Shown piece after piece: positions 534-20,035 of a stretch of DNA of 64,000 nt. The stretch comes from an uncultured Melioribacter sp. (GTDB lineage Bacteria > Bacteroidota > Ignavibacteria > Kapaibacteriales > Kapaibacteriaceae), in the NCBI GenBank assembly GCA_964484755.1, contig CAZAGH010000002.1:24783-88782 (forward strand), in the 5' to 3' direction. Each line of letters begins with the position of its first letter. Position 1 is the first letter of the stretch. A program made the position numbers and the translations under genes. The notes beneath the pieces are model-generated. The model did not search any database, was not told the DNA's origin, and was given only the letters and a program-made list of their open reading frames with translations.

Positions 534-1913
534 TTAGCCGTTAGCCTTTGGCGTTGGGAATGCTTCACGCATAGCAACGATGATCTTCTCAGCTACCTTG
601 TCAGACACAACACGCTTGACATTGTCGTCGCTTGCCAAAGCTTCTGCAATAGCAAGTTCAACCTTCTTCTTAATGATTTCTGATGTTTCGCCCACCAAAG
701 CACTGGCCATAGAGTGCATGTCTTCCGAAACATCCTTCATCGTTTCTAGCTGATTCTTGCTTGCGTCTTCCATCTTCTTCATGAGCTTGTCAATGCGCTC
801 TTCAGCACCAGTGTATACAAGACCGAACGCCAAGAGTGCAAGAAGAGTGCCTTCAAGTGAAATAGCAGCAAGGATCAGTGACGGGCGCGTACCTGGAATG
901 AATTTCAAGCCGCGAATACCGATGATAACGATCAGGATGGCAGCACCGAAGTATGCCAAACCTGTTACGTTGTTCGAATACTTTTCCGTGAAGTGGTGAG
1001 CCATGTACAGACGTAGACCTGGAAACAGGCGATGACGTCCACGTGACCACATTATACCACCTGTCGTATCAACGATTTCCTGCACAACAAAGTCCGAGAA
1101 GAACTCATTGATACGAACAAACAATGCCTCTGCGCGGAACGTTGAAAGAGCAATATCAGGAGTGAAGACGTCTTCGAAACGGATAACACGACGGCCGTGA
1201 CCACCGTTCTTCGATTCACTTTCCTGTGCTGTTCGGTCCCAAACTGTCTTGAACGCCGCACGAACATCCTTGTGCTCGAGCGCATCCAGATCAGAATTTG
1301 GCATAGTAAGAAGATCAACGATTTCCTCACTGAAACCTGTCTGCAGACGAATCTTTGTCTTATTGTGGTGGATTTCACGGTCGACCTTTTGCGCCATGAA
1401 TCCAATGGAGCTTGGCATGAAGAAGGTCAAGAAAATTGCAATCGTGAAACCAAGCGAGATGGCGAGCACCGAGAATGCGATTGGAGGCTCGATGAACACC
1501 GAGTTTTCGCCAAGACCGCCTTCTTCTGTGTTACGAAGAACCCACCAGCTCGCAGACTTGTCAAAACCGTCCTTTTCCTTTGTGCGCTCAACACCTGTTG
1601 AGAAGTCGAACACGATATTCGCGTTCTTCATGACCGTCTTGAGACCGCCCTTGTTGACTTCCTCAACACGTTGTTGCATTGTCTTCGAGGCGTCATCAGC
1701 TTCCATTACACCAATAACGTTGGGTATCACCTCGTCGTACTTTGCGCCCTGCTTCAGCTCGTGCGGTGCGAAGAGGCTAGATACGAATCCCTGGACACCC
1801 CACGGAAGCACAGTGAAGTAGAAAAACACCGCAAGAACTGCTGTCAATCCTAACAGTACAAGTCCGTGTTGCATACCAGATTTTGGTATCTCTGCATGAC
1901 CATTTGCCGTCAT
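534..1913 (-). CDS. polytopic inner-membrane protein, MotA/TolQ/ExbB-like topology (function uncertain)
   Basis: 459-aa ORF. Hydrophobic segments at about residues 18-38 and 145-170, then a pair at about 320-375. A ~100-aa loop follows TM1, a ~150-aa loop follows TM2, and the C-terminus is a charged coiled-coil tail. This four-TM layout with a large cytoplasmic loop resembles MotA/ExbB proton-channel proteins. The family assignment is inferred. Confidence 0.3.
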   Translation of the reverse strand: MTANGHAEIPKSGMQHGLVLLGLTAVLAVFFYFTVLPWGVQGFVSSLFAPHELKQGAKYDEVIPNVIGVMEADDASKTMQQRVEEVNKGGLKTVMKNANIVFDFSTGVERTKEKDGFDKSASWWVLRNTEEGGLGENSVFIEPPIAFSVLAISLGFTIAIFLTFFMPSSIGFMAQKVDREIHHNKTKIRLQTGFSEEIVDLLTMPNSDLDALEHKDVRAAFKTVWDRTAQESESKNGGHGRRVIRFEDVFTPDIALSTFRAEALFVRINEFFSDFVVQEIVDTTGGIMWSRGRHRLFPGLRLYMAHHFTEKYSNNVTGLAYFGAAILIVIIGIRGLKFIPGTRPSLILAAISLEGTLLALLAFGLVYTGAEERIDKLMKKMEDASKNQLETMKDVSEDMHSMASALVGETSEIIKKKVELAIAEALASDDNVKRVVSDKVAEKIIVAMREAFPTPKANG

Positions 1914-4427: not shown

Positions 4428-5134
4428 GGCGCAAAATAGGGCTTGCTGCAGCAGTAACGATATCATCCGTCGTTGTTGTTGCAGCCATTGTGGATCAGGT
4501 GATTCTACCATTGATCGTTTCAATGACACCAACGATCACTGTTCCCAATGTTGTCGGTCTCAAGGGAGAAGAATCACGTATCATCATGCAAAGTGCCGGA
4601 TTGCAAGTCGCGCAGATACGTGAACAATACAGCGACGATACGCCAGCTGGTATGGTTATGTCACAACTCCCCTATGCTGATGCTATTGTCAAAGAAGGTC
4701 GACGCGCTTACCTGACTGTGAGCAAGGGTGTTGAGCGAATCAGAGTACCACAACTTATTGGATCGTCACAACGAGATGCTCGTCTGGCGTTGATGCGAAA
4801 TGGACTCGTGCTAGGCTCAGTATCATTCCGCTCGGATTCGTTGTCTCCTGCAGGCATCATTATTGGTCAAAGTATACCGGAAGGAACAACCGCACAGCGC
4901 GAGTCGATTGTCGACATAGTGGTTTCGACCGGGAATGGAGCACCAGTTCCAGATGTTGTGGGATTATCGTTATCCGAGGCCGAGCAAATCATACAAACTA
5001 GTGGCTTCACTGTCGGGCCGACCATTCAGCGCTCGTCAACAGCATTTGAGCCCGGCACGGTGATTGGTCAGACGCCAAAGGCAGACAGCGCTGCAGCAAC
5101 GGGTGCGTCTATAACACTCATCATTGCAAAATGA
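4397..5134 (+). CDS. PASTA-domain protein with N-terminal membrane anchor
   Basis: One N-terminal TM helix, then three ~65-aa repeats. Each begins VP[NQD]V/L-IG/VGL (PASTA signature), e.g. VPNVVGLKGEES, VPQLIGSSQRDA, VPDVVGLSLSEA. Confidence 0.6.
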   Translation: MNRYFRAMWTWRKIGLAAAVTISSVVVVAAIVDQVILPLIVSMTPTITVPNVVGLKGEESRIIMQSAGLQVAQIREQYSDDTPAGMVMSQLPYADAIVKEGRRAYLTVSKGVERIRVPQLIGSSQRDARLALMRNGLVLGSVSFRSDSLSPAGIIIGQSIPEGTTAQRESIVDIVVSTGNGAPVPDVVGLSLSEAEQIIQTSGFTVGPTIQRSSTAFEPGTVIGQTPKADSAAATGASITLIIAK

Positions 5135-5456
5135 TATAAACCCACCCGTCGGATTCCAAAACCTCATATGTCTTAAGGGCGCTGTTACCGGTGTCTCGGC
5201 GTCCGGTTCTTACATCGTAGCGCCAACCATGTAGGGGGCATGTCACGATACCTTCCTCGATATGCCCGTCGTAAATCACGGGGCTTCGTTTGTGCGGACA
5301 GACGTTGGAAACGCAGTAAATGACTCCATCGATGCGGAAGAGCGCCAGATCATGCTCGATGTCCACATCAACACGTTTGCCATGTCGCTCTGAAACCTCG
5401 ACTGATCTGCAGATTCGCGTCCACTCCCTACCCTGTCGAACTATGACCTCGAACAT
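5121..5456 (-). CDS. Rieske [2Fe-2S] domain protein (small-subunit NirD-like ferredoxin)
   Basis: CPHKRSPV ... CPLHGWRY, i.e. the CxH-(n)-CxxH Rieske ligand pattern, in a 111-aa protein. Confidence 0.7.
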   Translation of the reverse strand: MFEVIVRQGREWTRICRSVEVSERHGKRVDVDIEHDLALFRIDGVIYCVSNVCPHKRSPVIYDGHIEEGIVTCPLHGWRYDVRTGRRDTGNSALKTYEVLESDGWVYIILQ

Positions 5457-5464
5457 GGGCTACC

Positions 5465-6307
5465 TTATGGCCTCAACGATATCGGTTCCGACAGCACAGG
5501 CCCCTTGCTACCTGATATCACTCGGGCAGCATCACGCAGAGCATCGTGCTCGAAGACAACGATCCATTCCTCGTCGATGATCTGCGGCAACAGCTTCTTC
5601 TTCTCTTCTATTGTTGTGAGCGGGAAATTGTCATAGCCCATCACGTATGGCACCGGAATGTGGGCACCGGTTGGCATGAGGTCGGCAGGAAAAAAGACTG
5701 TTGTGCTGCCGTCTGAGACCTTTACTCCCTGCATTGCTTGTGTGTGGCCATGCAACGGTATCACAGAAATTCCCGGGAACAGCTCGCCAGGACCATCGAG
5801 AAGCTCCATCATGCCAGCCCCTACGAGGGGCTGATACATTTCCGGCATAAATGATGCACGATCTTTTTCCGTAGGCGACAATGCCCAGGCATAGTGCTCT
5901 CTTTGAACGTAGTGTCGAGCGCGTGAAAAACGTGGGGTTCCGTCGGCGAGCATCGCACCGCCGGCATGATCAAAATGCAGGTGTGTGAATATCACATCCG
6001 TTACGTCGTCAGGCGATATTCCCTGCATAGCCATGGATTGTTCGATGTTGTGCTCAGCAAAGTCCATCTTATAAATGCTCGCCAACTTTTCAGGCATGTA
6101 CGGACTATTGCCCGTATCGACAAGTATGCATCGGCCGTTCCCCCTGATGCATAAGACCTTGGCAGCCATCGGGATACGGTTTAGTTCGTCTGATTCAGCA
6201 TATGCCCTTTGCCACAGTGTTTTCGGCACAACACCGAACATAGCGCCGCCGTCAAGGCCAAACCGACAAGTTTCAAGAAGCGAGATTGAATAGGGTCCGA
6301 CGTTCAT
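5465..6307 (-). CDS. MBL-fold metallo-hydrolase
   Basis: THLHFDHAGG (HxHxDH zinc motif), later His residues, and 280 aa length. Confidence 0.75.
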   Translation of the reverse strand: MNVGPYSISLLETCRFGLDGGAMFGVVPKTLWQRAYAESDELNRIPMAAKVLCIRGNGRCILVDTGNSPYMPEKLASIYKMDFAEHNIEQSMAMQGISPDDVTDVIFTHLHFDHAGGAMLADGTPRFSRARHYVQREHYAWALSPTEKDRASFMPEMYQPLVGAGMMELLDGPGELFPGISVIPLHGHTQAMQGVKVSDGSTTVFFPADLMPTGAHIPVPYVMGYDNFPLTTIEEKKKLLPQIIDEEWIVVFEHDALRDAARVISGSKGPVLSEPISLRP

Positions 6308-6404: not shown

Positions 6405-8555
6405 ATGGGTGCTATAACGAAGATTCGGCAGATTAGTCCGTATTTCCTTGCAGTCATTGCGACACTGTTCATTGTGTTCATGGTTGTCCAGGATTCTAGT
6501 TGCACGAACATGCGCAGCGCGCGCAACAGTGGTGCAACCATGGTGGTAGCCGAGGTTAACGGCGAACCAATTTCTGTGGGTGACTTTGAAGCACGTGTAA
6601 AGGAAGTGATCGAAGGCCAACGCAAGCAGAACCCAGACCAGGAGATCGACGACGAGGTTCTTCGTCAGCAGGTCTTCGACGAGATGGTCAATGAGGTCCT
6701 ACGTCGCCAAGAAGCAGAAAAGATGGGCCTCGTGGTCACTCCGCAGCAGATCATCGACGTCTTGCTCGTAAATCCACCCGAACAGTTTCAGTTCGGTAAG
6801 GATACTGCCGGACGATTTGATCCAAAGATGCAGTGGCAGCTTGTTACCAATCCAGAAAGCATGAAGGAACTGCTTGAGCGCAACGGTCTCACCGTTGAAA
6901 AGTGGAAAGAGATGCTCCTGCAGACAGAAGACTATTTGCGTAGCCAGATGCTCCAGCAGGCAATTGCATCGGCTGTTGGCACTGCAGCAAGCACGCCATC
7001 GTTCGCAGTTGGCAAACGACAGTTTGTTCGTGAGAACAGCTCAGCTGATATTGAGTATATCGCTCTTTCGAGCAGCCGCGTTCGTGATGCAGACGTTAAC
7101 GTAACGGATGCAGACATCGCCGCCTACTACGAAAAGAACAAGGAGTTCTACAAGCAGCGTCCAGGCCGTGCGATCAAGTTCATTGCCTTCCCGCCGCTAC
7201 CATCTCGTGACGACACAACCAACGCACTGAAGAAGTCACAGAAGCTTGCAGAGACGTTCGCCAAGTATACCACGCTGGAACAGCGCGATTCTGCATTCAG
7301 TAGCGAAATGGTTACCCTGCGTGGTACAGAGTTCGACTACACGTCACCTTCAGAAATGGACCCGACGGTAGCAACTACCCTAGCCTCCCTTGCACCACGC
7401 GAAGTTTTTGGTCCGCTCAACGTACCTGGAGGCATAGCATACTATCGTCTCGATGGACGCCGCGACGGAGTCAACCCTATCGCACGTGCTTCGCATATTT
7501 TGATCCCATTCGGTGTGAACAAGGATTCAGCCAAGGCAGAAGCAAACTCCGTTTTGGCTAAGGCCAAAAAGGGCGATGACTTTGCTGAACTTGCACGTAC
7601 GTACTCCAAGGATCCAGGATCAGCCCAGCAAGGTGGCGATCTGAACTACTTTGGCAAGGGGCGTATGGTACCTGAATTCGACAGTGCTGTTTTCGCTGCA
7701 TCTGCTGGTTCGATCGTTGGTCCAGTTGAAACGCAGTTCGGCTACCACATTATCAAGGTCGTCGAGAAGCTGTCCGTCGAATACAAGTACTCCGCCATCA
7801 CGATCAAAGCTGGCATCTCAGCTGCGACAAAGCGTGCAATTGCAGCAGCTGCTGAACAAGCTTACCAAGCTCTGCAAAACGGAGAGGCCATTGAAAGCGT
7901 TGCAACGCCTTATGCAAAGAAGTTCTATGCTCAGCTCCAAGAAACACCTGTATTCGGTAACGAAACACCAGTGCTCCAGTCACGTGAGCTAACATCATGG
8001 GCTTTTGAGAACGAAGTTGGTGCGGTTATTCGTCGCGACATCAAATATTACGGCACAGTGATCGCCCAGGTGTCCGACGCCCGCGAAGCAGGTGTTAAGC
8101 CCCTTGCTGACATGAAGGACAAGATCAAGCGCATTCTCACAGAGCGCGCGAAGTTGGCGAAGCTTGAATCTCAGGCGAAGCAAATGGCCTCTGTTGCAGC
8201 GTCACAAGGCCTAGCTGCAGCCCGCGGCGGTGATTCAACTATCACGTTTGCCACGCAGACGGGTGTGAAGGACAACGGCATGATCACGGGTTTTGGTGGA
8301 GAGTATGCTGTAACATCAGCTGCCTTCTCTCAGCCAATTGGATCTGTCGGCAAGGCCATCAAGGGTGAAAATGGTTGGTTCATCATACGTGTGATTAACC
8401 GTACTGATGCCAATGTTGCAGATTATGCAAAGAATCCAACAAGTATCCTCCAGGCGATTTCTCAGCGTGTACGCAACAGTGCTTTTGGAACATGGTTCCA
8501 GAAGGTGCGTGAACGTGCAGAGATCAAGGATAAGCGTTTCAGCTCAGAAGGATAA
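6405..8555 (+). CDS. ppiD: periplasmic chaperone / peptidyl-prolyl isomerase PpiD(SurA)-like
   Basis: 716 aa with an N-terminal TM anchor and a SurA_N-like region. Two parvulin-type rotamase segments (e.g. GGDLNYFGKGRMVPEFDSAVF ... GYHIIKV). GGAGGAG RBS precedes the ATG. Confidence 0.7.
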   Translation: MGAITKIRQISPYFLAVIATLFIVFMVVQDSSCTNMRSARNSGATMVVAEVNGEPISVGDFEARVKEVIEGQRKQNPDQEIDDEVLRQQVFDEMVNEVLRRQEAEKMGLVVTPQQIIDVLLVNPPEQFQFGKDTAGRFDPKMQWQLVTNPESMKELLERNGLTVEKWKEMLLQTEDYLRSQMLQQAIASAVGTAASTPSFAVGKRQFVRENSSADIEYIALSSSRVRDADVNVTDADIAAYYEKNKEFYKQRPGRAIKFIAFPPLPSRDDTTNALKKSQKLAETFAKYTTLEQRDSAFSSEMVTLRGTEFDYTSPSEMDPTVATTLASLAPREVFGPLNVPGGIAYYRLDGRRDGVNPIARASHILIPFGVNKDSAKAEANSVLAKAKKGDDFAELARTYSKDPGSAQQGGDLNYFGKGRMVPEFDSAVFAASAGSIVGPVETQFGYHIIKVVEKLSVEYKYSAITIKAGISAATKRAIAAAAEQAYQALQNGEAIESVATPYAKKFYAQLQETPVFGNETPVLQSRELTSWAFENEVGAVIRRDIKYYGTVIAQVSDAREAGVKPLADMKDKIKRILTERAKLAKLESQAKQMASVAASQGLAAARGGDSTITFATQTGVKDNGMITGFGGEYAVTSAAFSQPIGSVGKAIKGENGWFIIRVINRTDANVADYAKNPTSILQAISQRVRNSAFGTWFQKVRERAEIKDKRFSSEG

Positions 8556-8576
8556 GGTCCAACAACGACGCTGTAA

Positions 8577-8618
8577 GACGTCCTCATGTTCATCCGAGCA
8601 TGAGGACGTTTCATTTTC
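8577..8618 (+). terminator. rho-independent terminator after ppiD
   Basis: Perfect 11-bp stem ACGTCCTCATG / CATGAGGACGT with a 10-nt loop, followed by TTCATTTTC. Confidence 0.6.
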
Positions 8619-8633
8619 AGCGGCAGACTCAAT

Positions 8634-9395
8634 ATGACGCACAACGAAGCTTACGCACACTGCAGACAGATAGCAACATCGCATTACGAGAACTTTCCTG
8701 TTGCATCGGTACTTGTTCCCTCTCGAATGCGAAAGCATCTCTATGCGATCTATGCGTTCTCTCGAAAAGCAGACGACATTGCTGACGAGGGGAATGCCTC
8801 GGTTGAAGAGCGCTTGCGAGAGCTGGAGAAACTTCGATTACTGCTCCGGGCTGAATCATCAGATGACCCAGTCCTTTGTGCTTTGTTGTTGACCATCAAG
8901 GATTGCCGACTTCCACTTTCTCTCTTCGACCGCCTACTGGATGCATTCGAAAGCGATGTAAGCTTTACTCCTTCCACTTCATGGAATCAAGTACTTGCCT
9001 ATTGCCATAATTCTGCGGATCCTGTTGGTGAACTGTTTTTGCGGCTAGATTACGAAGGAGATGAGCCCCCTATCGATGCAATCATGGCCTCAGATCGCAT
9101 CTGTACTGCACTGCAAATCACAAATTTTCTGCAGGACTTATCAATCGACATTCCACGAGGAAGAACCTACCTGCCTCTGCCAGATGCCGAGGTGATCAAT
9201 CGTACTCGACAGTTGTTTGACGAAGGAGCATGTGTCGTGCGGTATGCTCGATCGTGGCGATTGCGCATGGAGCTACGAGCGATCATCTACGGTGGACGTA
9301 CCATGCTTGAACTCTGTGCACGACGGAAAGACCGTCTAACGCGGCCTCGTCTCACCATGTGGACATTGCTGCTTCATCTGTTTCGAACTCGGTAG
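8634..9395 (+). CDS. squalene/phytoene synthase family protein (HpnC-like)
   Basis: YENFPVASVL... YAFSRKADDIADEG carries the first Asp-rich motif. A second Asp-rich region is QDLSIDIPRGRTYLP. This is the trans-isoprenyl diphosphate synthase head-to-head fold. It is the first of a tandem pair. Confidence 0.65.
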   Translation: MTHNEAYAHCRQIATSHYENFPVASVLVPSRMRKHLYAIYAFSRKADDIADEGNASVEERLRELEKLRLLLRAESSDDPVLCALLLTIKDCRLPLSLFDRLLDAFESDVSFTPSTSWNQVLAYCHNSADPVGELFLRLDYEGDEPPIDAIMASDRICTALQITNFLQDLSIDIPRGRTYLPLPDAEVINRTRQLFDEGACVVRYARSWRLRMELRAIIYGGRTMLELCARRKDRLTRPRLTMWTLLLHLFRTR

Positions 9396-10297
9396 TAACT
9401 TGCGCCATGCCGAATCACGTCTTTGCAGAGACTGAAGACGAGCTCACGTTTTCTACTCAGGGCAGTACATCATTTCACTATTCGTTCGGGTTCCTTCCAC
9501 GTGAAGAACGCGAGGCGATCAGGACTGTGTATGCCTTTGCGAGAAGAATCGACGACATCGTTGATGAAGATCCATCAGTTGATCCTGAGGTCATAACTCG
9601 CAAGCGTCAGCGCTTGCATTGGTGGCGCACGCAGATCGAAGCTATGTACGACCCCAATGCAGACGCATCTACTGCTGTCTCTGCGCTAGGTGCAGTCATT
9701 CGGCGATTTACAATCCCGAAGCAGTACTTTCTCACAATCATTGATGGATGTGAGCGCGACCTTGTGCAACACCGTTATTCAACCTTTGCCGAGCTAAAGG
9801 AGTATTGCTACTCCGTTGCCTCAGCAGTTGGCTTGATAAGCATTGAGATCTTTGGCTACAAGCATGAACAGACCAGACAGTATGCCATACATCTTGGTTA
9901 TGCGTTGCAGCTGACGAATATCCTTCGTGATGTCAAGGCCGACAAAGACCGCGGCTACATCTATATTCCGCAAGAAGACCTCGAGCGCTTCAAACTTACC
10001 GAGGCAGACATCTTTAACGAAGTCTACGATGAGCGCTTTATATCGATGATGGAGTATCAAGCAAAACGAGCACGAGAGTATTATCATCATGCTCGGGCAC
10101 TGCTTAGGCCCGATGAGCGTTTAACGATGGTGGCTGCCGAGATCATGGACGCCATCTATTACCGGTTACTTGATAAAATTGAGCTCAATGACTTCAACGT
10201 TTATGAAAAGAAGATCCGCGTCAACACCCTGCACAAGGTTATTACTGCCCTACGGATCTGGCTTGGATCAAAACTGTTTGTCAAGCGCTTGAGATAA
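9359..10297 (+). CDS. squalene/phytoene synthase family protein (HpnD/CrtB-like)
   Basis: YAFARRIDDIVDED and LTNILRDVKADKDRGYIYIP supply both Asp-rich motifs. 312 aa. The true start is probably the internal Met near 9407, which removes the overlap with the upstream paralog. Confidence 0.65.
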   Translation: MDIAASSVSNSVVTCAMPNHVFAETEDELTFSTQGSTSFHYSFGFLPREEREAIRTVYAFARRIDDIVDEDPSVDPEVITRKRQRLHWWRTQIEAMYDPNADASTAVSALGAVIRRFTIPKQYFLTIIDGCERDLVQHRYSTFAELKEYCYSVASAVGLISIEIFGYKHEQTRQYAIHLGYALQLTNILRDVKADKDRGYIYIPQEDLERFKLTEADIFNEVYDERFISMMEYQAKRAREYYHHARALLRPDERLTMVAAEIMDAIYYRLLDKIELNDFNVYEKKIRVNTLHKVITALRIWLGSKLFVKRLR

Positions 10298-10313
10298 TCT
10301 GTATTTTTGCCAC

Positions 10314-10787
10314 ATGAGTACTACATTCACCTCCGACGAGCTGGCCTCGATCAGCGCTCTCAAAGCCAAGTATCCAGAACCAAAAGCTGCCATCATGCCT
10401 GTGCTGTGGATGGCTCAGAAGAAGTGGGGCTGGCTATCTGAGGATGTCATGAAGGAAGTTGCCAACGTAATGGAGCTCCCTTATGCTCACGTCCTCGGTG
10501 TTGCATCGTTTTACACGATGTACTTCAAGAAGCCAATGGGTCGCCACCATGTACAAGTGTGTACGAATGTCAGTTGTATGCTACGCGGCGGCGAGTCCCT
10601 CTATAAGCACGCTCAGCAGCGTCTTGGTATTGGGCATAATCAAGCCACGGCAGATGGTAAGTTCTCACTTGAAGAAGTTGAGTGCATGGGTGCTTGTGGT
10701 GGTGCTCCAATGATCGCCGTCAACGAGACATTCTACGAGAACTGCTCACAACAGCAATTGGATGCTGTGCTTGATGCTTGCCACTAA
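10314..10787 (+). CDS. NuoE-like thioredoxin-fold [2Fe-2S] ferredoxin (NADH dehydrogenase 24-kDa subunit family)
   Basis: Cys ligands in ...HVQVCTNVSCMLRGGE... and ...ECMGACGGAPM..., the classic NuoE/HoxF N-terminal pattern. 157 aa. It stands alone; no nuoF or nuoG is nearby. Confidence 0.7.
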   Translation: MSTTFTSDELASISALKAKYPEPKAAIMPVLWMAQKKWGWLSEDVMKEVANVMELPYAHVLGVASFYTMYFKKPMGRHHVQVCTNVSCMLRGGESLYKHAQQRLGIGHNQATADGKFSLEEVECMGACGGAPMIAVNETFYENCSQQQLDAVLDACH

Positions 10788-10796: not shown

Positions 10797-11405
10797 TTAC
10801 TCGACAACTGTCGCAGTATTCTGATAGATCAATCGAAACGTAAGATTTATGCGCGGGCCATGTGCCCGCGTTTTTTTTTCTATACCGTGAAGCCAGTGTT
10901 GTTGTGTGGTCCCTTTCATCACGAGAACACTGCCCGAGCTCAGTGGTATGCGCACGGGTGCAATGTCCCGCCGTGTCTTATGCTTGAGCACAAATGTTCT
11001 CGTTTCGCCAAAGCTCATAGATACAATTGTTGGATTCGAACCTAGCTCGGGTTCATCGTCTGCGTGCAACCCCATGCTGTCGCGTTCATCGCGATAGAGA
11101 TTTGCTAACACAGAATTGAATCTTGCATCCGTGATCTCCTCAGCTATCGATCGAAGTTTGAGCAGTGTCGTGGTCCACGGCTTAGCGCAATAGATTCGTT
11201 TGGAGTACATGTACTCTACGCCGTCATCACCTAGGAACTCAAGCAGACGTGGCTGGTACATTGTCTTACCAAACATGGTAATCGTGTCCTGTCTCCATGG
11301 AATCTCTGTGAACAGTGCGTTGAAATAGTCTGTGCTGGAAAGGGGCGATGAGGCCCCCTCAAATAGAAAAATTTCAGCATCGGGTATTGTCAATTGTATC
11401 GACAT
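10797..11405 (-). CDS. alkB: alpha-ketoglutarate/Fe(II)-dependent dioxygenase AlkB (alkylated DNA repair)
   Basis: The 2OG-Fe(II) oxygenase facial triad is present (LHADDE ... HWLHGI), together with the C-terminal RINLTFR motif. The second in-frame Met at 11405 (MSIQLTIPDAEIF) is taken as the start. Confidence 0.8.
   Translation of the reverse strand: MSIQLTIPDAEIFLFEGASSPLSSTDYFNALFTEIPWRQDTITMFGKTMYQPRLLEFLGDDGVEYMYSKRIYCAKPWTTTLLKLRSIAEEITDARFNSVLANLYRDERDSMGLHADDEPELGSNPTIVSMSFGETRTFVLKHKTRRDIAPVRIPLSSGSVLVMKGTTQQHWLHGIEKKTRAHGPRINLTFRLIYQNTATVVE
10851..10880 (+). terminator. rho-independent terminator for the nuoE-like gene, embedded in the 3' coding end of convergent alkB
   Basis: GCGCGGGC-CATGT-GCCCGCGC hairpin followed by T9 on the plus strand. 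On the minus strand the same bases encode ...KKTRAHGPR... of AlkB. Confidence 0.55.
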
Positions 11406-11441
11406 AATGTAAATTGTCCACATCTATTCAGAGGAGTATTC

Positions 11442-12209
11442 ATGCCTACCCGCGTTCAACTTGGAGTGCGCCATCGTCAGATTCGTGAGTCTTTGCTCAA
11501 AATGACCGTCCAAGAATATGCAAAAATGATGGATGTCAAGGTACCTACTGTCTACTCCTGGGAATCGGGCCGTACATCTGTTCCACAGAACGTACTGGCT
11601 ACACTTGAAAAGCGTTACGGTATATCATCGGGGTGGTTATTGACGGGATATGGCACTCCAATGTTGCCATCACATGTCAGTATAGATCCTGCTACTCAAA
11701 CCAAGAAATCCGTCATGGAACGTCTTGAAGAACACATCATGACTATCAAGCAGCTTGTAGACGAGTTGAAGCATCACTCGCCAGAGGTGATCGCCCCTGC
11801 CCGGCGGGAAAAAGGTTCGAATAAACATCGTATACCAATGTTAGCGTTGGGTGTCAGCGCTGGCCTTCCTACGGCTTCTGATGATACTATAGAACGCGAG
11901 ATCGATCTTGCGGACATGTTGCTCGAACATCCAGAGAGCACATACTTCATTCGGGTCGTTGGCGACTCAATGACAGATGCAGGTATCAGCGATGGCGATA
12001 CGCTGATCGTAGACTGCGCTGTGCAGCCTCGGGCTGGTCAGATCGTGATTGCCAAGGTCTACGGTGAGCTCACTGTAAAGCGATACCTTCAGGTCGACGG
12101 CCGTCCAATTCTGCGCGCTGAAAATCGCCGGTACAAAGACATTGCTATCACTGCTGACATGGACTTTACAATCGTAGGCGTCGTCCGGAACTGTATTAAG
12201 AAGCTATAA
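11442..12209 (+). CDS. LexA-like repressor: HTH_XRE DNA-binding domain fused to S24 LexA/UmuD autopeptidase domain
   Basis: N-terminal VQEYAKMMDVKVPTVYSWESGRTSVP is an XRE-type HTH. C-terminal GDSM ... KRY match the S24 Ser/Lys dyad. GAGGAG RBS at 11431-11436 precedes the ATG at 11442. The track ORF start at 11394 is an upstream extension. Confidence 0.75.
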   Translation: MPTRVQLGVRHRQIRESLLKMTVQEYAKMMDVKVPTVYSWESGRTSVPQNVLATLEKRYGISSGWLLTGYGTPMLPSHVSIDPATQTKKSVMERLEEHIMTIKQLVDELKHHSPEVIAPARREKGSNKHRIPMLALGVSAGLPTASDDTIEREIDLADMLLEHPESTYFIRVVGDSMTDAGISDGDTLIVDCAVQPRAGQIVIAKVYGELTVKRYLQVDGRPILRAENRRYKDIAITADMDFTIVGVVRNCIKKL

Positions 12210-12214
12210 TAACT

Positions 12215-12236
12215 CTACATTTTGTATAATTGCATC
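12215..12236 (+). promoter_or_regulatory. conserved element CTACATTTTGTATAATTG immediately 5' of the imuB-like start codon
   Basis: 17 of 18 positions match the element at the dnaE2 start (16886..16903). See findings. Confidence 0.5.
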
Positions 12237-13220
12237 ATGCTTTTAGCGATGCAATTATACGGCACGTATACAGACGCGTATTGGGATGCACTTGTAGATC
12301 GTATACACATCTGCACGCCTCTGATCAGTCTACCCTGTAGAGGCAGATTATACTGTGGACTTGACGACATACATGGTCTACGTGAACTTGTCTTATCACA
12401 TAAACTCCAGGCAGCTGTAGCCAAAACACGTCATGATGCTCTGCTGCAATCATGCCAAGCGACAAAGGGCCGAATTGATGCACATGATGGTTCGGATGAT
12501 GTACCGGTTTCGGTCCTGAAACGTATTATCGAGCTTGAGATCCAAGATCATGATATCGAGCGTCTTACCCTTTTCGGACTCTACACCATAGGTAGCCTCA
12601 GATCACTCACAGAACGCCACCTCTCAGCTCAGTTTGGTCATCGTGGAACAAAGCTCTACCAATTCCTGCACGAATACGATGATTCGCCACTGCCGTTCTA
12701 CATACCAGCACCATCAATAATTGTAGCTGAACGCTATGATGATGCACAGCAAGAGCCAGGGCCAATTTTTGAGTCATTAGAGCGCTCTGCACATCGTGCA
12801 TGCACATTACTTGGAACGCGATCTACTTGGCGTATAGAAGTCGCATGCCTTGATAAGGCAGATCAGCCTATGGCAGTGCGCGAACGTATTCTTCGATCAG
12901 GCTGCAATCTAGTCCAACAACTACTCACACACCTGCATGCATTGACACGCGACCTTCTGAAGCAGTCAAGACAGTGGTGGGGATTGCGCGTACGATTGGC
13001 TTCATTGGCACTGCCTGTAGCAGAACAAACTGCCCTGTTCTTGCCAGTAAAAGGTGCTCAAGATGTAGCACGTGAAATGATTCCACGCTACGGGCATGTC
13101 ATGAGAAAGATCACGATTCATAACCCATGGTCTATCATTCCAGAGGAGTATGCAAGCTGCACACCTATGATGCAGAGGACTATTGAAGGATCCTCAAGTT
13201 CAGGAGAGGAGCAGCAATGA
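12237..13220 (+). CDS. imuB: ImuB-like Y-family polymerase homolog (catalytically degenerate)
   Basis: The N-terminus MLLAMQLYGTYTDAYWDAL aligns with the ImuB LWLALHLP...LEAL entry. The DMDxFF catalytic Asp/Glu motif of active DinB/UmuC is absent. The thumb/HhH region ERLTLFGLYTIGSLRSLTERHLSAQFG is conserved. It is positioned with lexA-like and dnaE2. At 328 aa it is shorter than typical ImuB. Confidence 0.55.
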   Translation: MLLAMQLYGTYTDAYWDALVDRIHICTPLISLPCRGRLYCGLDDIHGLRELVLSHKLQAAVAKTRHDALLQSCQATKGRIDAHDGSDDVPVSVLKRIIELEIQDHDIERLTLFGLYTIGSLRSLTERHLSAQFGHRGTKLYQFLHEYDDSPLPFYIPAPSIIVAERYDDAQQEPGPIFESLERSAHRACTLLGTRSTWRIEVACLDKADQPMAVRERILRSGCNLVQQLLTHLHALTRDLLKQSRQWWGLRVRLASLALPVAEQTALFLPVKGAQDVAREMIPRYGHVMRKITIHNPWSIIPEEYASCTPMMQRTIEGSSSSGEEQQ

Positions 13221-13453
13221 AAAGTATTCATGAGCCCATAGACGTTGCACAGCAACAACAAACACCGTACATGATCTGTTGGCGTGGGGGGACGTACGCT
13301 GTCGAGCGCATCATTGATTCATGGACTAGTCGCGGACCATGGTGGGGCAACGACGAGATCCGGGGCTACGTACTACTGATCACCAGTTCAGGGGTGATGG
13401 AGATCTATCACAGCAATATTCGCGGATGGATGCTTTCTCGAATGTATGACTAA
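13217..13453 (+). CDS. 78-aa hypothetical protein, translationally coupled to the imuB-like gene
   Basis: The ATG overlaps the imuB TGA as ATGA. Trp-rich (ICWRGG ... GPWWGNDE ... RGWML). No recognisable family. Confidence 0.4.
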   Translation: MKSIHEPIDVAQQQQTPYMICWRGGTYAVERIIDSWTSRGPWWGNDEIRGYVLLITSSGVMEIYHSNIRGWMLSRMYD

Positions 13454-13468: not shown

Positions 13469-15955
13469 TCACGATGAATACTTCATACTCACCATGTTGG
13501 CCATGAGCTTCATCGCACCAACAACTCCTACAGGGAGCTGACGAAACAGTGACAAGGATGTGTAAATAAAGTTACCCTTGCCATATCGCGTGTGCAGTAT
13601 GGTTCCTCGCTGCGGCATCTCACCTGTATCATGCATTTCGAGCAACTCAGAGTATCTGGCATCGTATGGACCTGGATTGTAGACTGAACGCTCCTGAACC
13701 CATCCAGCGAAATCTGATGTCGTAATACGATTCGGATACTGCAAGAGCGGATGCATTGGAAGTAAAATGGAAACCTCGGCATCTTCTTCGGTAACACGAT
13801 TCCGCGATATCGTGAGTGGATATGGGGCTATATCAGTAGTACTGAGATCCTGTAATGTGTTGTATTGCATCACGAGTGTGCCTCCCTGCTCTACATACCT
13901 GAGCAATGATGGCATCAGATACTTCATACTCTTACGAGTGTTGATGACACGTATACCGAGCACGAGAGCATCATACGAGAGCAGCTCGGTAGTACGCAAC
14001 AGCTGGTCATCCGTGATTTCATCAACAACTACACCAAGACCACGTAAGAATTCCGGCGTTGACTCTCCAGCACCTGACAGGTAGGCAACTTTCTTTGCTG
14101 CAACCTTGATTGGTTCACTGATCACACGAACGGCAGCAGGTTGCAAATACTGCAACGTTGGAATGTGGTCGTAACTGATTGTAACAACCGTCCTATCGTG
14201 GATAACAGACCCTATCTGAAGCCCTACGCGTAAATCGGTCGTATACGACGTCGACACATCGATTGAAACAAGCGTATCAGTCTGCGCTCGCAGGCGTATT
14301 CCATCAAGCCGAGCAAGAGTACGCTCACCATCCTGAACAAGAAGCGAAGCCGATTCGACAGTACCATAGGCACGTATTCGTACAGAAATCGGTGCCTTGC
14401 CTGATGTCTGATAGACAACTGCCCTTGTAGGCTCGATGCTCACCACCGGTACTATGCGCAGTTCTTCAATGACATCGCCCTTGAGCGGGTCGAGCTTTTT
14501 GAAACTAACAGGCAGCGACAACACGAACGTCTCATAGCCAATGGTCATGATTACTGGAACTTCAAGAACCGGTGCACTAATGGAAGTTCCTAGTAAGAAC
14601 TCTGAAGAAAGACGAAACAGGCCGCCGGCGGGATCTTGTTCGAGCCAGTATGGCTGGCTAACTGCTGTACCATAGGGTACGGTAAATCGGGCCTCTGCGA
14701 TATGGGTAGAATCGTTCACACATGAGAAACCATCGATGATTGCACCACCAGGTAGGGATATCGGCAAAATGGATACAGACCTTCCGGCACGTGTTGTAAA
14801 TCGAATGGTAGCTCTGGCAGTGTCACCACTCGTCATGATCGGCATTGGTACTGATACATCCGCGGTAAGTCCGATGCAAGACGTGATAATCTTGTCGATC
14901 TCCTTGATCTTCAGCTGGTTCCAAAAAGGATCCCTTACTTCGTTGATCTTTCCGCGTATGTTTAGAAGTTTATCAAGTGATCGATGTGGCGCAAGCATAT
15001 CATAGGTTGCGATCACCGAGTCAATTGCTGCACCGATTGAGGTTGCACCAATACGATTCCACGTTGTATCGATACCGTCAAACAAACTGCGTTGCGGTGC
15101 ATCACCAACAAGGGTCTCAAAATACTCCGGCTGAACACCTGGTGTACTTGGCGTCCCAGCCCCCTGACTTCTATGAATGCTGCGACTGATTCCAGCCAGT
15201 TCGCCATATCCCATGCCAAGCAACGGATCGTATTGTCCAACGTCGATCTTGAACATTCCTGGTTTGATGGTGCTGCGATTACCGAAGCGAAATGCATTGA
15301 AGAGCAATCTTTTAGGCTTCCACGGCTCTTCTCCGGTAACTATGGGATTGGCACGCAGAATAGAATCGACACGGTCTTTGCTTTCCTTTGAGAGTGTCGA
15401 TACTCCATAACAATAGCGCACGGCCTCTTCGGTGATGATTGCTGAAGCACTGTGCTGACCATGCCCTGCCATGCTATCCTTAGGGAAACGGCATATCACG
15501 ACGTCGGGCCGAAACTCTCGAATCACGCGCACAACATCTGCGATGAGAATCACACTATCCCAGTGTTGAAAGGTCTCTTTCGGATTCTTTGAAAACCCAA
15601 AATCAAGTGCACGTGAAAAGAACTGTTCTGCACCATCAAGCTTGCGTGCAGCAAGCAACTCATGTGTACGTATGAGTCCAAGCGCAGCCCCCTGCTCTGA
15701 ACCGATAATGTTCTGTCCTCCATCTCCACGTGTGAGTGAGAGATATCCTGTCCTGATGTTACGTCCATTTGCTAGCCACGAGAGAAGTCGTGTATTCTCA
15801 TCATCGGGATGAGCTGCAACGTAGAGCACCGATGTCATTGATCGAAGCTGTTGCAGCTTACCATAAATTCTGGATGACGGTAAGGGGCGTATCTGCTGAG
15901 CAGATACCGTTACGACGCAGCAAACGCCAATCAGTGCAGTGAGCAGTGTGTGCAT
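13469..15955 (-). CDS. large PIG-L/LmbE-family deacetylase (Bacteroidetes ~830-aa type)
   Basis: Signal peptide, then VLYVAAHPDDENTRLLSWL (PIG-L AHPDDE motif). 828 aa. Confidence 0.65.
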   Translation of the reverse strand: MHTLLTALIGVCCVVTVSAQQIRPLPSSRIYGKLQQLRSMTSVLYVAAHPDDENTRLLSWLANGRNIRTGYLSLTRGDGGQNIIGSEQGAALGLIRTHELLAARKLDGAEQFFSRALDFGFSKNPKETFQHWDSVILIADVVRVIREFRPDVVICRFPKDSMAGHGQHSASAIITEEAVRYCYGVSTLSKESKDRVDSILRANPIVTGEEPWKPKRLLFNAFRFGNRSTIKPGMFKIDVGQYDPLLGMGYGELAGISRSIHRSQGAGTPSTPGVQPEYFETLVGDAPQRSLFDGIDTTWNRIGATSIGAAIDSVIATYDMLAPHRSLDKLLNIRGKINEVRDPFWNQLKIKEIDKIITSCIGLTADVSVPMPIMTSGDTARATIRFTTRAGRSVSILPISLPGGAIIDGFSCVNDSTHIAEARFTVPYGTAVSQPYWLEQDPAGGLFRLSSEFLLGTSISAPVLEVPVIMTIGYETFVLSLPVSFKKLDPLKGDVIEELRIVPVVSIEPTRAVVYQTSGKAPISVRIRAYGTVESASLLVQDGERTLARLDGIRLRAQTDTLVSIDVSTSYTTDLRVGLQIGSVIHDRTVVTISYDHIPTLQYLQPAAVRVISEPIKVAAKKVAYLSGAGESTPEFLRGLGVVVDEITDDQLLRTTELLSYDALVLGIRVINTRKSMKYLMPSLLRYVEQGGTLVMQYNTLQDLSTTDIAPYPLTISRNRVTEEDAEVSILLPMHPLLQYPNRITTSDFAGWVQERSVYNPGPYDARYSELLEMHDTGEMPQRGTILHTRYGKGNFIYTSLSLFRQLPVGVVGAMKLMANMVSMKYSS

Positions 15956-15974: not shown

Positions 15975-16811
15975 TTACTTCAATGTCTTGAGCAGATCGT
16001 TGGCATACTTTGTGTACTCGGCTTCCGCTGATGTACCCTTTGCCAATTCGATAGTCTTCTGTGCCGCCTCGCGTGCAACATCAACATTGTTGAGTTTAGC
16101 TGCGATGCGCGCGCGAAGCAACTGGATCCAATAAGCCTTAGGGTTCTTCTCTGCGGCCTTAGTAGCGTATTCAAGAGCTTTGTCAAGTTGCTGATTCGTT
16201 TCATAGAGATACGATGCAGCTGGTTGATATGGGATTGTTGGATTGTTGATAGCTTTATCGATGGAAGTGAGCAGACGTTCCTGGTTACTGATCGCTACCG
16301 GGATTGATACATGCGTCTTTTCCCATGCAAGGTCGATGGTGCATGATGAGAATGCGATTGAACCGATTGAGATAGTAAAGGTCTCTACTGCTGACTCTAG
16401 TGCAACTGGTCGAACTTTTAGGCGGACAACATCATCTTTTGTGTCGTATCCAGTGGCTCCCCAATTACCGGTGTTCTTGTTGATGATTACTTCCCATTCC
16501 GACTTATCAGGTATTGTGTAGAGCGAATACGATCCAGCCTTGATATTCACACCGCCAATACGAACATCTTCACCAAAGGTGACCTTTGTGGCCGAGTTTG
16601 CTCCTGTGCGCCAGACAGTACCAAATGGAACAACATCTCCGAAGATTGTTCGACCACGCATCGAAGGCCTGCTATACACGATCTCGATCTTAGAAGTTGA
16701 TATGTCTTGAATGATCGTTGCGTTGGGACTCAGCGCTGGTAGTTTGAGTTCTTGTGCCGCAGTGACCTGAACGGCAAAAACAACGCAGAGAAGAAGATAT
16801 ACGTACTTCAT
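15975..16811 (-). CDS. DUF2911-like secreted protein with C-terminal TPR-like helical region
   Basis: Signal peptide; the 278-aa size and beta-rich region fit the DUF2911 family. Weak family-level call. Confidence 0.4.
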   Translation of the reverse strand: MKYVYLLLCVVFAVQVTAAQELKLPALSPNATIIQDISTSKIEIVYSRPSMRGRTIFGDVVPFGTVWRTGANSATKVTFGEDVRIGGVNIKAGSYSLYTIPDKSEWEVIINKNTGNWGATGYDTKDDVVRLKVRPVALESAVETFTISIGSIAFSSCTIDLAWEKTHVSIPVAISNQERLLTSIDKAINNPTIPYQPAASYLYETNQQLDKALEYATKAAEKNPKAYWIQLLRARIAAKLNNVDVAREAAQKTIELAKGTSAEAEYTKYANDLLKTLK

Positions 16812-16885: not shown

Positions 16886-16910
16886 CTACGTTTTGTATAT
16901 TGTTTATACA
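16886..16910 (+). promoter_or_regulatory. conserved element CTACGTTTTGTATATTG plus perfect palindrome TGTATA-TTGTT-TATACA overlapping the dnaE2 ATG
   Basis: Palindrome at 16894..16910. Its last A is the A of the start codon. It shares CTACRTTTTGTATAWTTG with the imuB upstream element. Confidence 0.55.
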
Positions 16911-19900
16911 TGCAGTTTGGATCCCTACATACACGATCTCACTTTTCCTTTCTTGATGGTGCGTCATCTCCTGAAAGCATGGCCATAACAGCTGCACAGT
17001 TGGGTCACACCGCAATTGTGCTGACCGATGTAATGGGGGTGTATGGTGCTGTGCGATTGCAGAGAGCATGCAAGGCCGTTGGAATTCGTGCTCTTATGGG
17101 CGCTGATTTCATCATCCATAATGTTACCATAAGTGCAATAGCTCGAAACGCCGAAGGGTATCGTCAGATATGTAGTCTTGTTACTACTCTACGCGATGGC
17201 GGTCTGATTGAAGAGAATATCCAAAGAAGCCCCCTTACTGAATGCGTGATCATCATCCACGGATGCAATGTCGATCTAGATTTGCTTAGCAGGGTCTGCT
17301 CGATCCTACGCGGAGGACGCGAATGCTATCTTGGTATAGAGCACGACGGCAGACCCTGGGCCCTTCGAAGGGCACGCCGGGTTGTAAACCTGGCAGAATC
17401 TCTCAAGATCCCATGCGTGATTGCACAAGATGTTCGTTATGCTACTCGTGATGAATACGCAGCACACGATCTGATGGTATGCATTCGTGAAGGTATCACC
17501 ATTCATGAACCTCACCCACTGCGACCTGTCAACGATCGACAATGTCTACGCTCTGAGCAGGAAGTCCGAGAACTGCTCCCGTTTCCTGAGGCATTTGAAA
17601 ACGTAGACCTAATTCTTTCAGCATGCACATTTGACATACTGCCTGACAGAGTTACTCCCCCATCAGCTCGCATCCCCGAGCGTACTACTGCCAAAGAAGT
17701 GCTACGGGAACTTGCCATAAAGGGACTTGAGCGGCGTTATCAGAGTTGCGACGCATACACAATAGAGCGAGCATGGGCGCAGCTGGAACATGAACTTCGC
17801 GTACTAGATGAACTGGAGCTTTCGGATTTCTTTCTTGTAGTGAATGAGGTTGTAAGTGAGGCACGACGCCGCGGCATACGTTGTAGCGGACGTGGTTCTG
17901 CAGCAAACTCTATCGTAGCCTATGTTCTCAACATCACTGGCGTATGCCCTATTCGACATCATCTGTTGTTTGAGCGCTTCTTGCATAGGGGGCGCAAAGG
18001 AACGCCAGATATCGATGTTGATTTCGACAGTGATCGGCGCTCAGAGATCATTGCATGGATGGAAGAACGCTTTGGTCTGGCTCAGACAGCAATGACAGCT
18101 ACAATGATCATGTACCGGATCCGCATGGCGATCCGTGATGTAGCCAAAGCACTTGGCTTTCCAATGGAGACTGTTCGCAGTCTTTCCAAGAGTGTGCCCT
18201 CATGGACCAATCAACCAGTGGAATCATACCGTGATGCCTTAGCCTCTATCATAGGTCATATTCCGATGCTCAATATACTACTTCGCGGTGTTGAGCTTCT
18301 CATCGATCACCCACGACACCTAGGACAACACTCAGGAGGAATGGTCTTATCAAGCAAGCCACTAGAGATGCTTACACCAGTACAGCGATCTTCTAATGGT
18401 GTTGCTGTTGTTCAATTCGACAAAGACGACATCGAAGCTATGGGGCTTGTAAAGTTTGACGTGCTGGGACTTCGTATGCTCGCCTGCATCAGTGAAGCCG
18501 TTGAGCTTCTTGAAGTTTATCAAGGCATTGTTATCGACATAGATGAAGTACCGCTGGACGACCCTGATACATTTCAGCTTATTCGCAGTGGCAAGACACT
18601 TGGGATCTTTCAAATTGAATCGCAGGGGCAAATGCATCTGCTTGCTAAACATCAACCCGAGTGTTTCGATGATCTCATTACGGAAGTAGCACTGTTCAGA
18701 CCTGGTCCACTCCAAGGTGGAATGGTACATCCATACATCGCAAGACGAACAGGCAAGGCACCTGTCGAATATGTTCATCCCGACCTCGAACCGCTTTTAT
18801 CAGACACGTTAGGCATTGTTCTGTTCCAAGAGCAGGTGCTAGAGATCGCGCACAGGTTTGCTGGCATGCCGCTCGACGAAGCCGATGATTTTCGGTCACT
18901 TGTCTCAAAGAACAGAGACCGAGTGCTTATGGCTGCAATGAAGGATACATTCATCAATGGAGCTATGTCAAGGGGCGTAGATCATGCATCAGCCGAGCGC
19001 GTGTATGATATTGTATCACACTTTGTAGGGTATGGCTTCTGTAGATCTCATGCAGCGGCATTTGCAAAGATCGTCTATCAAAGTGCGTGGCTCAAGGCCC
19101 ATCATCCTGCTGCATACATGGCGGCGTTCATGCAGCATAGGCCTGGGATGTATAATCTTATGACACTGGAAGAAGAATCACGTCGATTTGGTGTTGATGT
19201 TCTTCTGCCGGACATACGTTACTCACACATCCGCTATACGATAGAGCAACACCAGAATCAGCGATGGTGCATACGCAAGCCCCTTACTTCGATTCGTGAT
19301 GTTAGCGAAGATGTAGCTCGTGATATCATCATCGAACGAGCAAAGTCAACCTTTGTAAGCGTCGAGGATTTCGTCCTCCGATTACCAGGTATTTCTCGAG
19401 ATGTTCTTGAATCAATTGCTCTTGCAGGCGCACTGACACATCTTGATGAAGATGTCCGACGCACGATATGGATTATAGGGGTTGTACGCCAGCGGCAACA
19501 AACATCTACCACAGGGAGCCTCTTTACCACAGCACATATTCATGAGACAGAGATACCGGAGCTTCCAGAGCTCAGGGCACAGGAACGCTTAGCCTATGAC
19601 TACATTACACACGGAGCAGCACGTGTGCATCCAATGACACTCTTTCGACGCCTTATGACTACGATGGAGATACGTTCGATTGAGACAGTACACAGAATGC
19701 CAATAGAAAAACCCATGGTTGTTGTCACGGCCGGTATTGTGATGCTTCGCCAGGCGCCACCTACTGCACGAGGGATGCTGTTCGTTACGATCGAGGATGA
19801 GACAGGCTTTTTGCAGTGCGTAGTGCCCCCAAATGTGCGTCAAGCATATGCTACAGAGCTACGGTCGGCAGCGCTAATGCTAAAAGGAACCGTAACTGGT

Positions 19901-20035
19901 ATCGGCTCATGGAGGAGCATTATGGTGCGTGAGGTTGTTGTGCTAAATAACATCATTGGTGGATACCACGGACACCTTTCCTATGCTGGTGGACGTGATA
20001 CGCTAGAAGTTGGCAGCGTAGTTAGTTTTGCATGA
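16910..20035 (+). CDS. dnaE2: error-prone DNA polymerase DnaE2 (ImuC)
   Basis: N-terminal PHP domain (LHTRSHFSFLDGASSPESM), Pol III alpha core, and C-terminal OB fold. 1041 aa, and it ends without the tau/beta-binding tail, as in DnaE2 rather than replicative DnaE. Confidence 0.85.
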   Translation: MQFGSLHTRSHFSFLDGASSPESMAITAAQLGHTAIVLTDVMGVYGAVRLQRACKAVGIRALMGADFIIHNVTISAIARNAEGYRQICSLVTTLRDGGLIEENIQRSPLTECVIIIHGCNVDLDLLSRVCSILRGGRECYLGIEHDGRPWALRRARRVVNLAESLKIPCVIAQDVRYATRDEYAAHDLMVCIREGITIHEPHPLRPVNDRQCLRSEQEVRELLPFPEAFENVDLILSACTFDILPDRVTPPSARIPERTTAKEVLRELAIKGLERRYQSCDAYTIERAWAQLEHELRVLDELELSDFFLVVNEVVSEARRRGIRCSGRGSAANSIVAYVLNITGVCPIRHHLLFERFLHRGRKGTPDIDVDFDSDRRSEIIAWMEERFGLAQTAMTATMIMYRIRMAIRDVAKALGFPMETVRSLSKSVPSWTNQPVESYRDALASIIGHIPMLNILLRGVELLIDHPRHLGQHSGGMVLSSKPLEMLTPVQRSSNGVAVVQFDKDDIEAMGLVKFDVLGLRMLACISEAVELLEVYQGIVIDIDEVPLDDPDTFQLIRSGKTLGIFQIESQGQMHLLAKHQPECFDDLITEVALFRPGPLQGGMVHPYIARRTGKAPVEYVHPDLEPLLSDTLGIVLFQEQVLEIAHRFAGMPLDEADDFRSLVSKNRDRVLMAAMKDTFINGAMSRGVDHASAERVYDIVSHFVGYGFCRSHAAAFAKIVYQSAWLKAHHPAAYMAAFMQHRPGMYNLMTLEEESRRFGVDVLLPDIRYSHIRYTIEQHQNQRWCIRKPLTSIRDVSEDVARDIIIERAKSTFVSVEDFVLRLPGISRDVLESIALAGALTHLDEDVRRTIWIIGVVRQRQQTSTTGSLFTTAHIHETEIPELPELRAQERLAYDYITHGAARVHPMTLFRRLMTTMEIRSIETVHRMPIEKPMVVVTAGIVMLRQAPPTARGMLFVTIEDETGFLQCVVPPNVRQAYATELRSAALMLKGTVTGIGSWRSIMVREVVVLNNIIGGYHGHLSYAGGRDTLEVGSVVSFA

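Follow-up and report, generated by a model that had tools for sequence, protein, structure and literature searches.

Why does a gene for a complex I-type [2Fe-2S] subunit stand at the end of what looks like a squalene-synthesis locus? HpnC, HpnD and HpnE form a three-enzyme squalene pathway (Pan et al. 2015, summarised in PMC7306690), and in the canonical reference loci their genes follow the order hpnC-hpnD-hpnE. The DNA considered here, which we call the window, is a stretch of 64,000 nucleotides (nt) from an uncultured Melioribacter sp. (GenBank assembly GCA_964484755.1, contig CAZAGH010000002.1, forward-strand positions 24,783 to 88,782), and in it an hpnC-like gene and hpnD are followed by nuoE, which takes the slot usually held by hpnE. 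An earlier note on this DNA had proposed that NuoE might act here as an alternative electron carrier for the reduction of hydroxysqualene. We consider it probable, instead, that the hpnC-like/hpnD pair adjoins an independently expressed nuoE of complex I, in a neighbourhood inherited from the Kapabacteria ancestor.

Under this explanation the locus would comprise two units with separate functions, whose adjacency is inherited. The first would be the tight pair of hpnC-like gene and hpnD, with the final reduction and the use of the product, in a squalene lipid or a C30 carotenoid route, relying on genes elsewhere. The second would be nuoE, a standard complex I gene for the 24-kDa [2Fe-2S] protein of a 14-subunit NADH:quinone oxidoreductase; it would be transcribed from a separate Bacteroidetes-type promoter at the hpnD-nuoE junction up to a terminator of its own, and its product would partner with NuoF and NuoG encoded elsewhere.

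Identity of the synthase pair

Both synthases are Pfam SQS_PSY (PF00494) proteins, encoded like nuoE on the plus strand and separated from one another by 11 nt. The hpnC-like gene (8634..9395) encodes 253 residues and matches PF00494 with 147 bits; hpnD (9407..10297) encodes 296 residues from an ATG at 9407, the start chosen by gene callers on identical contigs, although the open reading frame (ORF) was first listed from a GTG at 9359. Each protein carries both Asp-rich motifs. In the HpnC-like protein these are DDIAD (D47-D51, 8772..8786, plus strand) and DLSID (D168-D172, within NFLQDLSID, 9135..9149, plus strand), in which D47, D48 and D51, and D168 and D172, are invariant among five orthologues. 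The corresponding motifs of HpnD are DDIVD (D49-D53, 9551..9565, plus strand) and DVKAD (D175-D179, 9929..9943, plus strand), where D49, D53, D175 and D179 are likewise invariant among five orthologues.

The second gene scores 286.8 bits on the HpnD model TIGR03465, above its NCBIfam equivalog cutoff of 278.6, and HpnD proteins of relatives reach 262.6 and 294 bits; we predict that it encodes presqualene diphosphate synthase, which would join two molecules of FPP into presqualene diphosphate. The best family for the first gene is HpnC (TIGR03464), at 206.1 bits against 98 for HpnD and 67 for CrtB, so that HpnC leads the other families by about 100 bits or more, but this score lies below the HpnC cutoff of 250.45. 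Pairwise comparisons with reference proteins are mixed: HpnC of Cupriavidus matches the first gene with 130 bits and the second with 73, and Cupriavidus HpnD matches hpnD with 175 bits and the first gene with 50. The Streptomyces HpnC matches the second gene better than the first in the window (74.7 versus 60.5 bits), and in other relatives it matches the first better. By its score on the HpnC model the first gene is best regarded as a divergent HpnC-like subfamily and not as a confirmed equivalog, with a predicted reaction from presqualene diphosphate to hydroxysqualene. A truncated or frameshifted ORF was considered for the HpnC-like protein and rejected, as its C-terminus aligns with those of its orthologues; it is the orthologues that are extended at the N-terminus or carry internal insertions, and this accounts for the differences in length.

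Like the HpnCDE loci of Cupriavidus gilardii and of Streptomyces fungicidicus plasmids, the window has hpnC followed tightly by hpnD, both with their Asp-rich motifs, but unlike them it has no following hpnE, shc or other hpn genes. With CrtB and CrtM the pair shares the SQS_PSY fold family PF00494 and the Asp-rich motifs. It differs from them in lacking an adjacent crtI or crtN and in its scores on the CrtB equivalog models, which range from 32 to 191 bits (at best 191 for the second gene and 67 for the first, against a cutoff of 550) where the models require 480 to 550. A CrtB or CrtM identity for the pair was rejected on these scores, which fall far short of the cutoffs. The earlier note had read the two genes as adjacent synthase paralogs, each with both Asp-rich motifs, in the arrangement of HpnC and HpnD. 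The adjacency and the motifs are as it described, and so is the second gene, which is HpnD and not CrtB or CrtM; the first is HpnC-like only.

Missing hpnE and fate of the product

Pfam scans of nearly all large ORFs of the window returned no amine oxidase or HpnE, SHC, CrtI, NuoF or NuoG. A tblastn search with two HpnE references gave no match in the window or in 94 related loci (1.57 Mb together), and tblastn with a reference SHC found none in the window. The absence of hpnE from these 64 kb, which the earlier note had asserted, thus holds by both kinds of search. In species without nuoE after hpnD, the genes found downstream belong to the Usp, alanine racemase, MoxR/VWA and TPR families and never to a reductase. 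Incomplete hpnCDE sets have been described previously (PMC7306690), and a literature search that combined Kapabacteria with squalene found nothing.

Most simply, the missing reductase would be an amine oxidase encoded at an unlinked site, for example by a gene like the COG1233 phytoene-dehydrogenase-related one that lies elsewhere in a related Kapabacteria metagenome-assembled genome (MAG; tables of PMC6338057). The earlier note would have given up its proposal had a bona fide hpnE been found elsewhere; the COG1233 gene of the published MAG is a candidate for that role and points, weakly, in this direction.

Does the pair then feed carotenoids? Such a pathway would run through squalene by the C30 route or directly through dehydrosqualene, and would be completed by unlinked amine-oxidase desaturases together with a lycopene-cyclase-domain protein. 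Several observations speak for it. SHC is almost absent from the Fibrobacteres-Chlorobi-Bacteroidetes (FCB) group (PMC7306690) and none is found near hpnCD; in Planctomycetes, HpnCDE are known to supply a C30 carotenoid pathway (PMC9907078); the related MAG has its COG1233 phytoene-dehydrogenase-related gene; and the HpnC-like protein is divergent and scores under its equivalog cutoff. The window also holds a bona fide lycopene-cyclase-domain gene at 27038-27769, which the earlier note had pointed out and which is real, with 99 bits on TIGR03462 against a cutoff of 39.4. However, none of 80 species has a desaturase linked to the pair, HpnD passes its own equivalog cutoff where the CrtB models stay far below theirs, and the cyclase-domain gene stands 17 kb away amid genes of type IX secretion and partition, which are unrelated. 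On balance we regard a carotenoid role for the pair as unlikely, if still worth keeping in view.

The cyclase-domain gene itself lies on the minus strand, has two repeats of the domain and falls below the Pfam threshold. Its neighbours are a PorQ-like type IX secretion gene (27766-28713) and a 723-residue ORF without a family match (24857-27028), and no further carotenoid gene was found close to it.

NuoE as a subunit of complex I

The third gene, nuoE (10314..10787, plus strand, 157 residues), begins 16 nt after hpnD. Its product scores 180.7 bits on the complex I model TIGR01958 (cutoff 142.4), over model positions 2-146 of 148, and the thioredoxin-like [2Fe-2S] family PF01257 with 183.5 bits against a threshold of 24.8. 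The cluster ligands C83, C88, C124 and C128 (Cx4C...Cx3C) align with the cysteines of NDUFV2. Its top matches in the PDB are NDUFV2 of Drosophila, mammals and yeast and NuoE/Nqo2 of Paracoccus and Thermus (E 5e-40 to 2e-33), and among PDB matches these complex I subunits outrank HydC, HoxE-like proteins and FdsG, the gamma subunit of formate dehydrogenase, with hydrogenase subunits at 1e-24 to 1e-29. The closest relatives of both NuoE and HpnD come from MAGs labelled Candidatus Kapabacteria/Kapaibacterium, Ignavibacteria or Chlorobiota, and by these names the organism of the window is itself a member of the Kapabacteria. Across relatives NuoE is 60-98% identical, and it is the most conserved of four syntenic products, with a median identity to the window of 75% compared with 64% for HpnD, 49% for PpiD and 41% for HpnC. 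Conservation of this degree fits a core respiratory subunit and not a recruited protein.

Stand-alone thioredoxin-like [2Fe-2S] ferredoxins of the Aquifex Fd4 or Clostridium pasteurianum type have about 100-110 residues and no N-terminal helical domain. NuoE of the window resembles them in its thioredoxin-like [2Fe-2S] domain and in being encoded by a single gene, but it matches NuoE models end to end, which is also true of subunits docking on NuoF-type flavoproteins. With NuoE, Nqo2 and NDUFV2 of complex I it shares the full-length match to TIGR01958 and PF01257, the four Cys ligands and an organisation of scattered genes. It differs from complex I NuoE in lying outside a nuo operon, and 94 related loci likewise have no other nuo gene within 10 kb: tblastn with 13 E. 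coli Nuo proteins (NuoA-N) found NuoE alone, in the window and in the 94 loci. The earlier note had remarked on the want of nuoF and nuoG beside nuoE, and this observation extends to the relatives.

In this part of the bacterial tree, scattered complex I genes have been reported. In Ignavibacterium album the genes for a 14-subunit NDH-1 are divided among three clusters (PMC3362086), the NDH-1 genes of Melioribacter roseus are similarly split, and the Kapabacteria member Ca. Thermonerobacter thiotrophicus encodes nuoE away from its remaining complex I genes. For this lineage a lone nuoE is nothing out of the ordinary.

The published MAG of this Kapabacteria member carries the same trio of genes, and its authors place nuoE in a 14-subunit NDH-1 (PMC6338057). 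In its Table S2, _10006675 is the 24 kD NuoE of the NUO set, and _10006676 and _10006677 are phytoene/squalene synthetases; NuoF (_100114311) and NuoG (_10007719, beside nuoH and nuoI) are encoded on other contigs (PMC6338057). The diel metatranscriptome of the same study (Table S1) assigns both synthases to k-means cluster B (variable), NuoE, like NuoA, C, K and M, to cluster D (weak night), and NuoF and NuoG to cluster E (strong night) (PMC6338057). The nuoE of this relative therefore belongs to a night-time class along with other nuo genes, and the synthases belong to a different one. If the window follows the pattern of this published relative, its nuoF and nuoG would likewise lie elsewhere and its nuoE would be expressed apart from the synthases.

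Might this NuoE belong to some other NuoEF-type module, such as a bifurcating hydrogenase (HydABC), an NAD-formate dehydrogenase or a soluble diaphorase? The family does include HydC, HoxE and FdsG, nuoE lies outside any nuo operon, and the related MAG also holds a HydABC-type set. We nevertheless consider such an assignment very unlikely. The NCBIfam scores favour complex I, at 181 bits for nuoE_fam (TIGR01958) against 114 for FdsG and 111 for HoxE, as do the PDB matches, with E for complex I on the order of 1e-40. In the MAG, moreover, the hydrogenase-linked 24-kD copy is a separate gene, _10057503, that adjoins its own 51-kD and Fe-hydrogenase genes, and the copy on the side of the synthases is listed under NDH-1 (PMC6338057).

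Gene-order conservation among relatives

The HpnD locus was surveyed with one genome per species in 80 GTDB species, whose HpnD is 58-97% identical to that of the window. The hpnC-like gene stands directly upstream of hpnD in all assessable relatives, at a distance of 15-620 nt (measurable in 78 of the 80 related loci). We scored nuoE as adjacent if it began within 400 nt after hpnD, which could be judged in the 77 species with enough downstream sequence, and we used the ppiD-like gene, an unrelated upstream neighbour, as an internal control for gene order (71 informative loci).

By this measure nuoE adjoins hpnD in 52 of the 77 species; in 5 it is found at a distance of 0.8-5 kb, and in 20 the available flank does not contain it, while ppiD adjoins hpnC in 53 of 71 loci and is absent in 18. 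Each neighbour is also kept without the other, nuoE without ppiD in 13 species and ppiD without nuoE in 14. On a neighbour-joining tree of HpnD, parsimony makes the adjacency of nuoE ancestral with at least 9 changes, compared with at least 4 for ppiD; these counts are approximate, coming as they do from a single-protein tree. Linkage to nuoE is thus kept no better than linkage to the unrelated ppiD, and both partners outlive its loss. In one relative (locus L014) an orthologous NuoE, 73% identical, is encoded entirely alone, and in another (L013, Ignavibacteria bacterium GCA_016191145.1) three opposite-strand genes at 7085-9764, including a transposase HTH fragment, have come to stand between hpnD and nuoE. 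The earlier note had named conservation of nuoE beside the synthases as a check on its proposal; the adjacency is ancestral and common, and it has been broken repeatedly with hpnCD and nuoE both persisting.

Promoter motif and transcription model

The sigma-A promoter of Bacteroidetes has a -7 box TAnnTTTG at -12 to -5 (PMC9723704), and the Chlorobi promoter resembles it, with TTG-N17-23-TANNTTTG (bioRxiv 10.1101/172254). A match of this Bacteroidetes/Chlorobi type lies just ahead of nuoE (10278..10309, plus strand) and constitutes its predicted promoter: a -33 TTG at 10278-10280, which overlaps the final codons of hpnD, is followed after a 21-nt spacer by a -7 box TATTTTTG at 10302-10309. The predicted start of transcription then falls on the ATG at 10314 or right beside it, and the nuoE mRNA would be leaderless.

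When distinct relatives are examined for the motif within 80 nt upstream of gene starts, the exact form precedes nuoE in 24 of 61, or 41 of 61 if one position is relaxed, and ppiD in 31 of 51, but hpnC in only 2 of 82 and hpnD in 4 of 83, against a background of 2.4% of windows. The nuoE of L013, detached from hpnD, retains the TATTTTTG motif upstream. This evidence is one of motifs alone, and it agrees with the expression data of the published relative. A scan for the sigma-70 consensus gave weak matches close to chance (7 versus 4.0 expected) and was set aside because this lineage uses a -7 box of the TAnnTTTG type.

Two hairpins mark possible boundaries of transcription. One, on the plus strand at 10851..10880, begins 64 nt past the nuoE stop and consists of 8 pairs (7 of them G-C) followed by a T-run, a structure like an intrinsic terminator that would close the nuoE transcript (-15.8 kcal/mol, z = -3.4). 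The earlier note had placed nuoE 16 nt downstream of the pair and ahead of a strong terminator; the spacing is as it stated, and a terminator-like hairpin is present. The other (8576..8611, plus strand) has a 16-bp stem followed by UUUCAUUUUCA and folds at -30.1 kcal/mol (z = -7.3), a stability matched by none of 200 shuffled sequences; its 3' end lies 22 nt before the hpnC start codon, and it looks like the terminator of ppiD.

Has NuoE replaced HpnE?

It is against these observations that the proposal of the earlier note has to be judged. Carried to its full form, it would mean that NuoE, alone or with a further partner, was recruited to replace the FAD-dependent HpnE, and that hpnC-hpnD-nuoE is a functional squalene operon of three genes. 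The position of nuoE where canonical loci have hpnE, the 16-nt same-strand gap, the single terminator after nuoE, the ancestral adjacency in 52 of 77 species (13 of them with a different upstream gene) and the want of any HpnE within 10 kb in the relatives all speak for it. But a thioredoxin-fold [2Fe-2S] subunit does not by itself offer a site for reducing a substrate, and this protein is a full-length, highly conserved NuoE of the complex I type. The relative with the trio has nuoF and nuoG elsewhere and expresses nuoE with the nuo class and not with the synthases, hpnCD occur without a nearby nuoE in 20 species and nuoE also occurs without nearby hpnCD, and the adjacency has been broken at least 9 times around a nuoE that has its own promoter-like motif. 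The role of NuoE as an alternative electron carrier in hydroxysqualene reduction is not supported, given the assignment to NDH-1 in the MAG, the separate expression class, the repeated loss of adjacency and the promoter-like element, and we give replacement of HpnE by NuoE very little credence, though if true it would be a new non-flavin route to the last step of bacterial squalene synthesis. A broader version, in which Kapabacteria have no canonical HpnE at all and the divergent HpnC-like/HpnD pair would arrive at squalene or a C30 precursor through a non-canonical reductive step, with electrons from an ancestrally co-located NuoE that moonlights apart from complex I, seems to us just as improbable.

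Our preferred explanation, of two separate units that are neighbours by descent, has difficulties of its own, and six observations weigh against it. In the 80 related species tblastn found no homologue of HpnE or SHC up to 10 kb from hpnCD. All six HpnC-like proteins scored, that of the window and those of five relatives (199.8-248.7 bits), fall under the HpnC cutoff. There is no NuoF or NuoG in the 64-kb window, and the pairing of NuoE with them in this genome is one that we infer. No promoter-like element was seen upstream of hpnC, which leaves the model of transcription units incomplete; candidates for the transcription of hpnCD are read-through from ppiD, despite the -30 kcal/mol hairpin, and an unrecognised promoter. 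The 16-nt spacing between hpnD and nuoE would also permit co-transcription by read-through. Finally, about two thirds of species still have the ancestral adjacency, 13 of them with a changed upstream context, and some selection for co-location may have acted.

Flanking genes and other features of the window

The ppiD-like gene upstream of the trio (6405..8555, plus strand) encodes a periplasmic chaperone/peptidyl-prolyl isomerase with Pfam SurA_N_2 and Rotamase domains. Further upstream, at 5121-6307 on the minus strand, are genes for a Rieske-type [2Fe-2S] ferredoxin (NirD/HcaC-like, 111 residues) and a YtnP-like protein of the metallo-beta-lactamase fold, and many relatives have both of them conserved ahead of ppiD. 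The locus is thus flanked by two different small [2Fe-2S] proteins, with no functional link evident between them. Downstream of nuoE follows a convergent gene for an AlkB-like 2-oxoglutarate-Fe(II) oxygenase (10797..11423, minus strand; PF13532, 132 bits), whose 3' coding end is overlapped by the plus-strand hairpin at 10851-10880. This neighbour varies among relatives, is found in the closest ones only and is an unrelated gene. Scans of the whole window for tRNAs and Rfam families gave nothing relevant.

Beyond the AlkB-like gene, an SOS mutagenesis-type cassette occupies 11394-13453 and 16910-20035, with a LexA-like S24 repressor, a 332-residue ORF without a family match, a DUF6504 protein and a DnaE2-like polymerase. 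Relatives (L007) have the cassette in one uninterrupted block, and in the window it is split by two genes of the opposite strand, one for a PIG-L-domain protein (13469-15955) and one for a DUF2911/TPR protein (15975-16811). At 31013-37789 on the minus strand lies a gene for a 2258-residue SprA-like type IX secretion translocon protein, adjoining parA and parB; type IX secretion genes such as those for SprA and PorQ are typical of the Bacteroidota-Chlorobiota group. Three further ORFs have no Pfam match, at 534-1913 (minus strand, 459 residues), 55542-57515 (minus strand, 657 residues) and 43847-44683 (plus strand, 278 residues), and the first of them is conserved in relatives L001 and L007.

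Implications

Tight spacing and conserved adjacency are by themselves no proof of an operon where promoters are of the Bacteroidetes type and transcripts may be leaderless, and loci of this lineage should be read with that caution in mind. The survey documents the hpnC-like/hpnD pair across at least 80 species of Kapabacteria, a group that surveys of squalene synthesis have not discussed. As hpnE is never linked to the pair, the terminal reductase and the end product of the pathway in these bacteria become a testable question.

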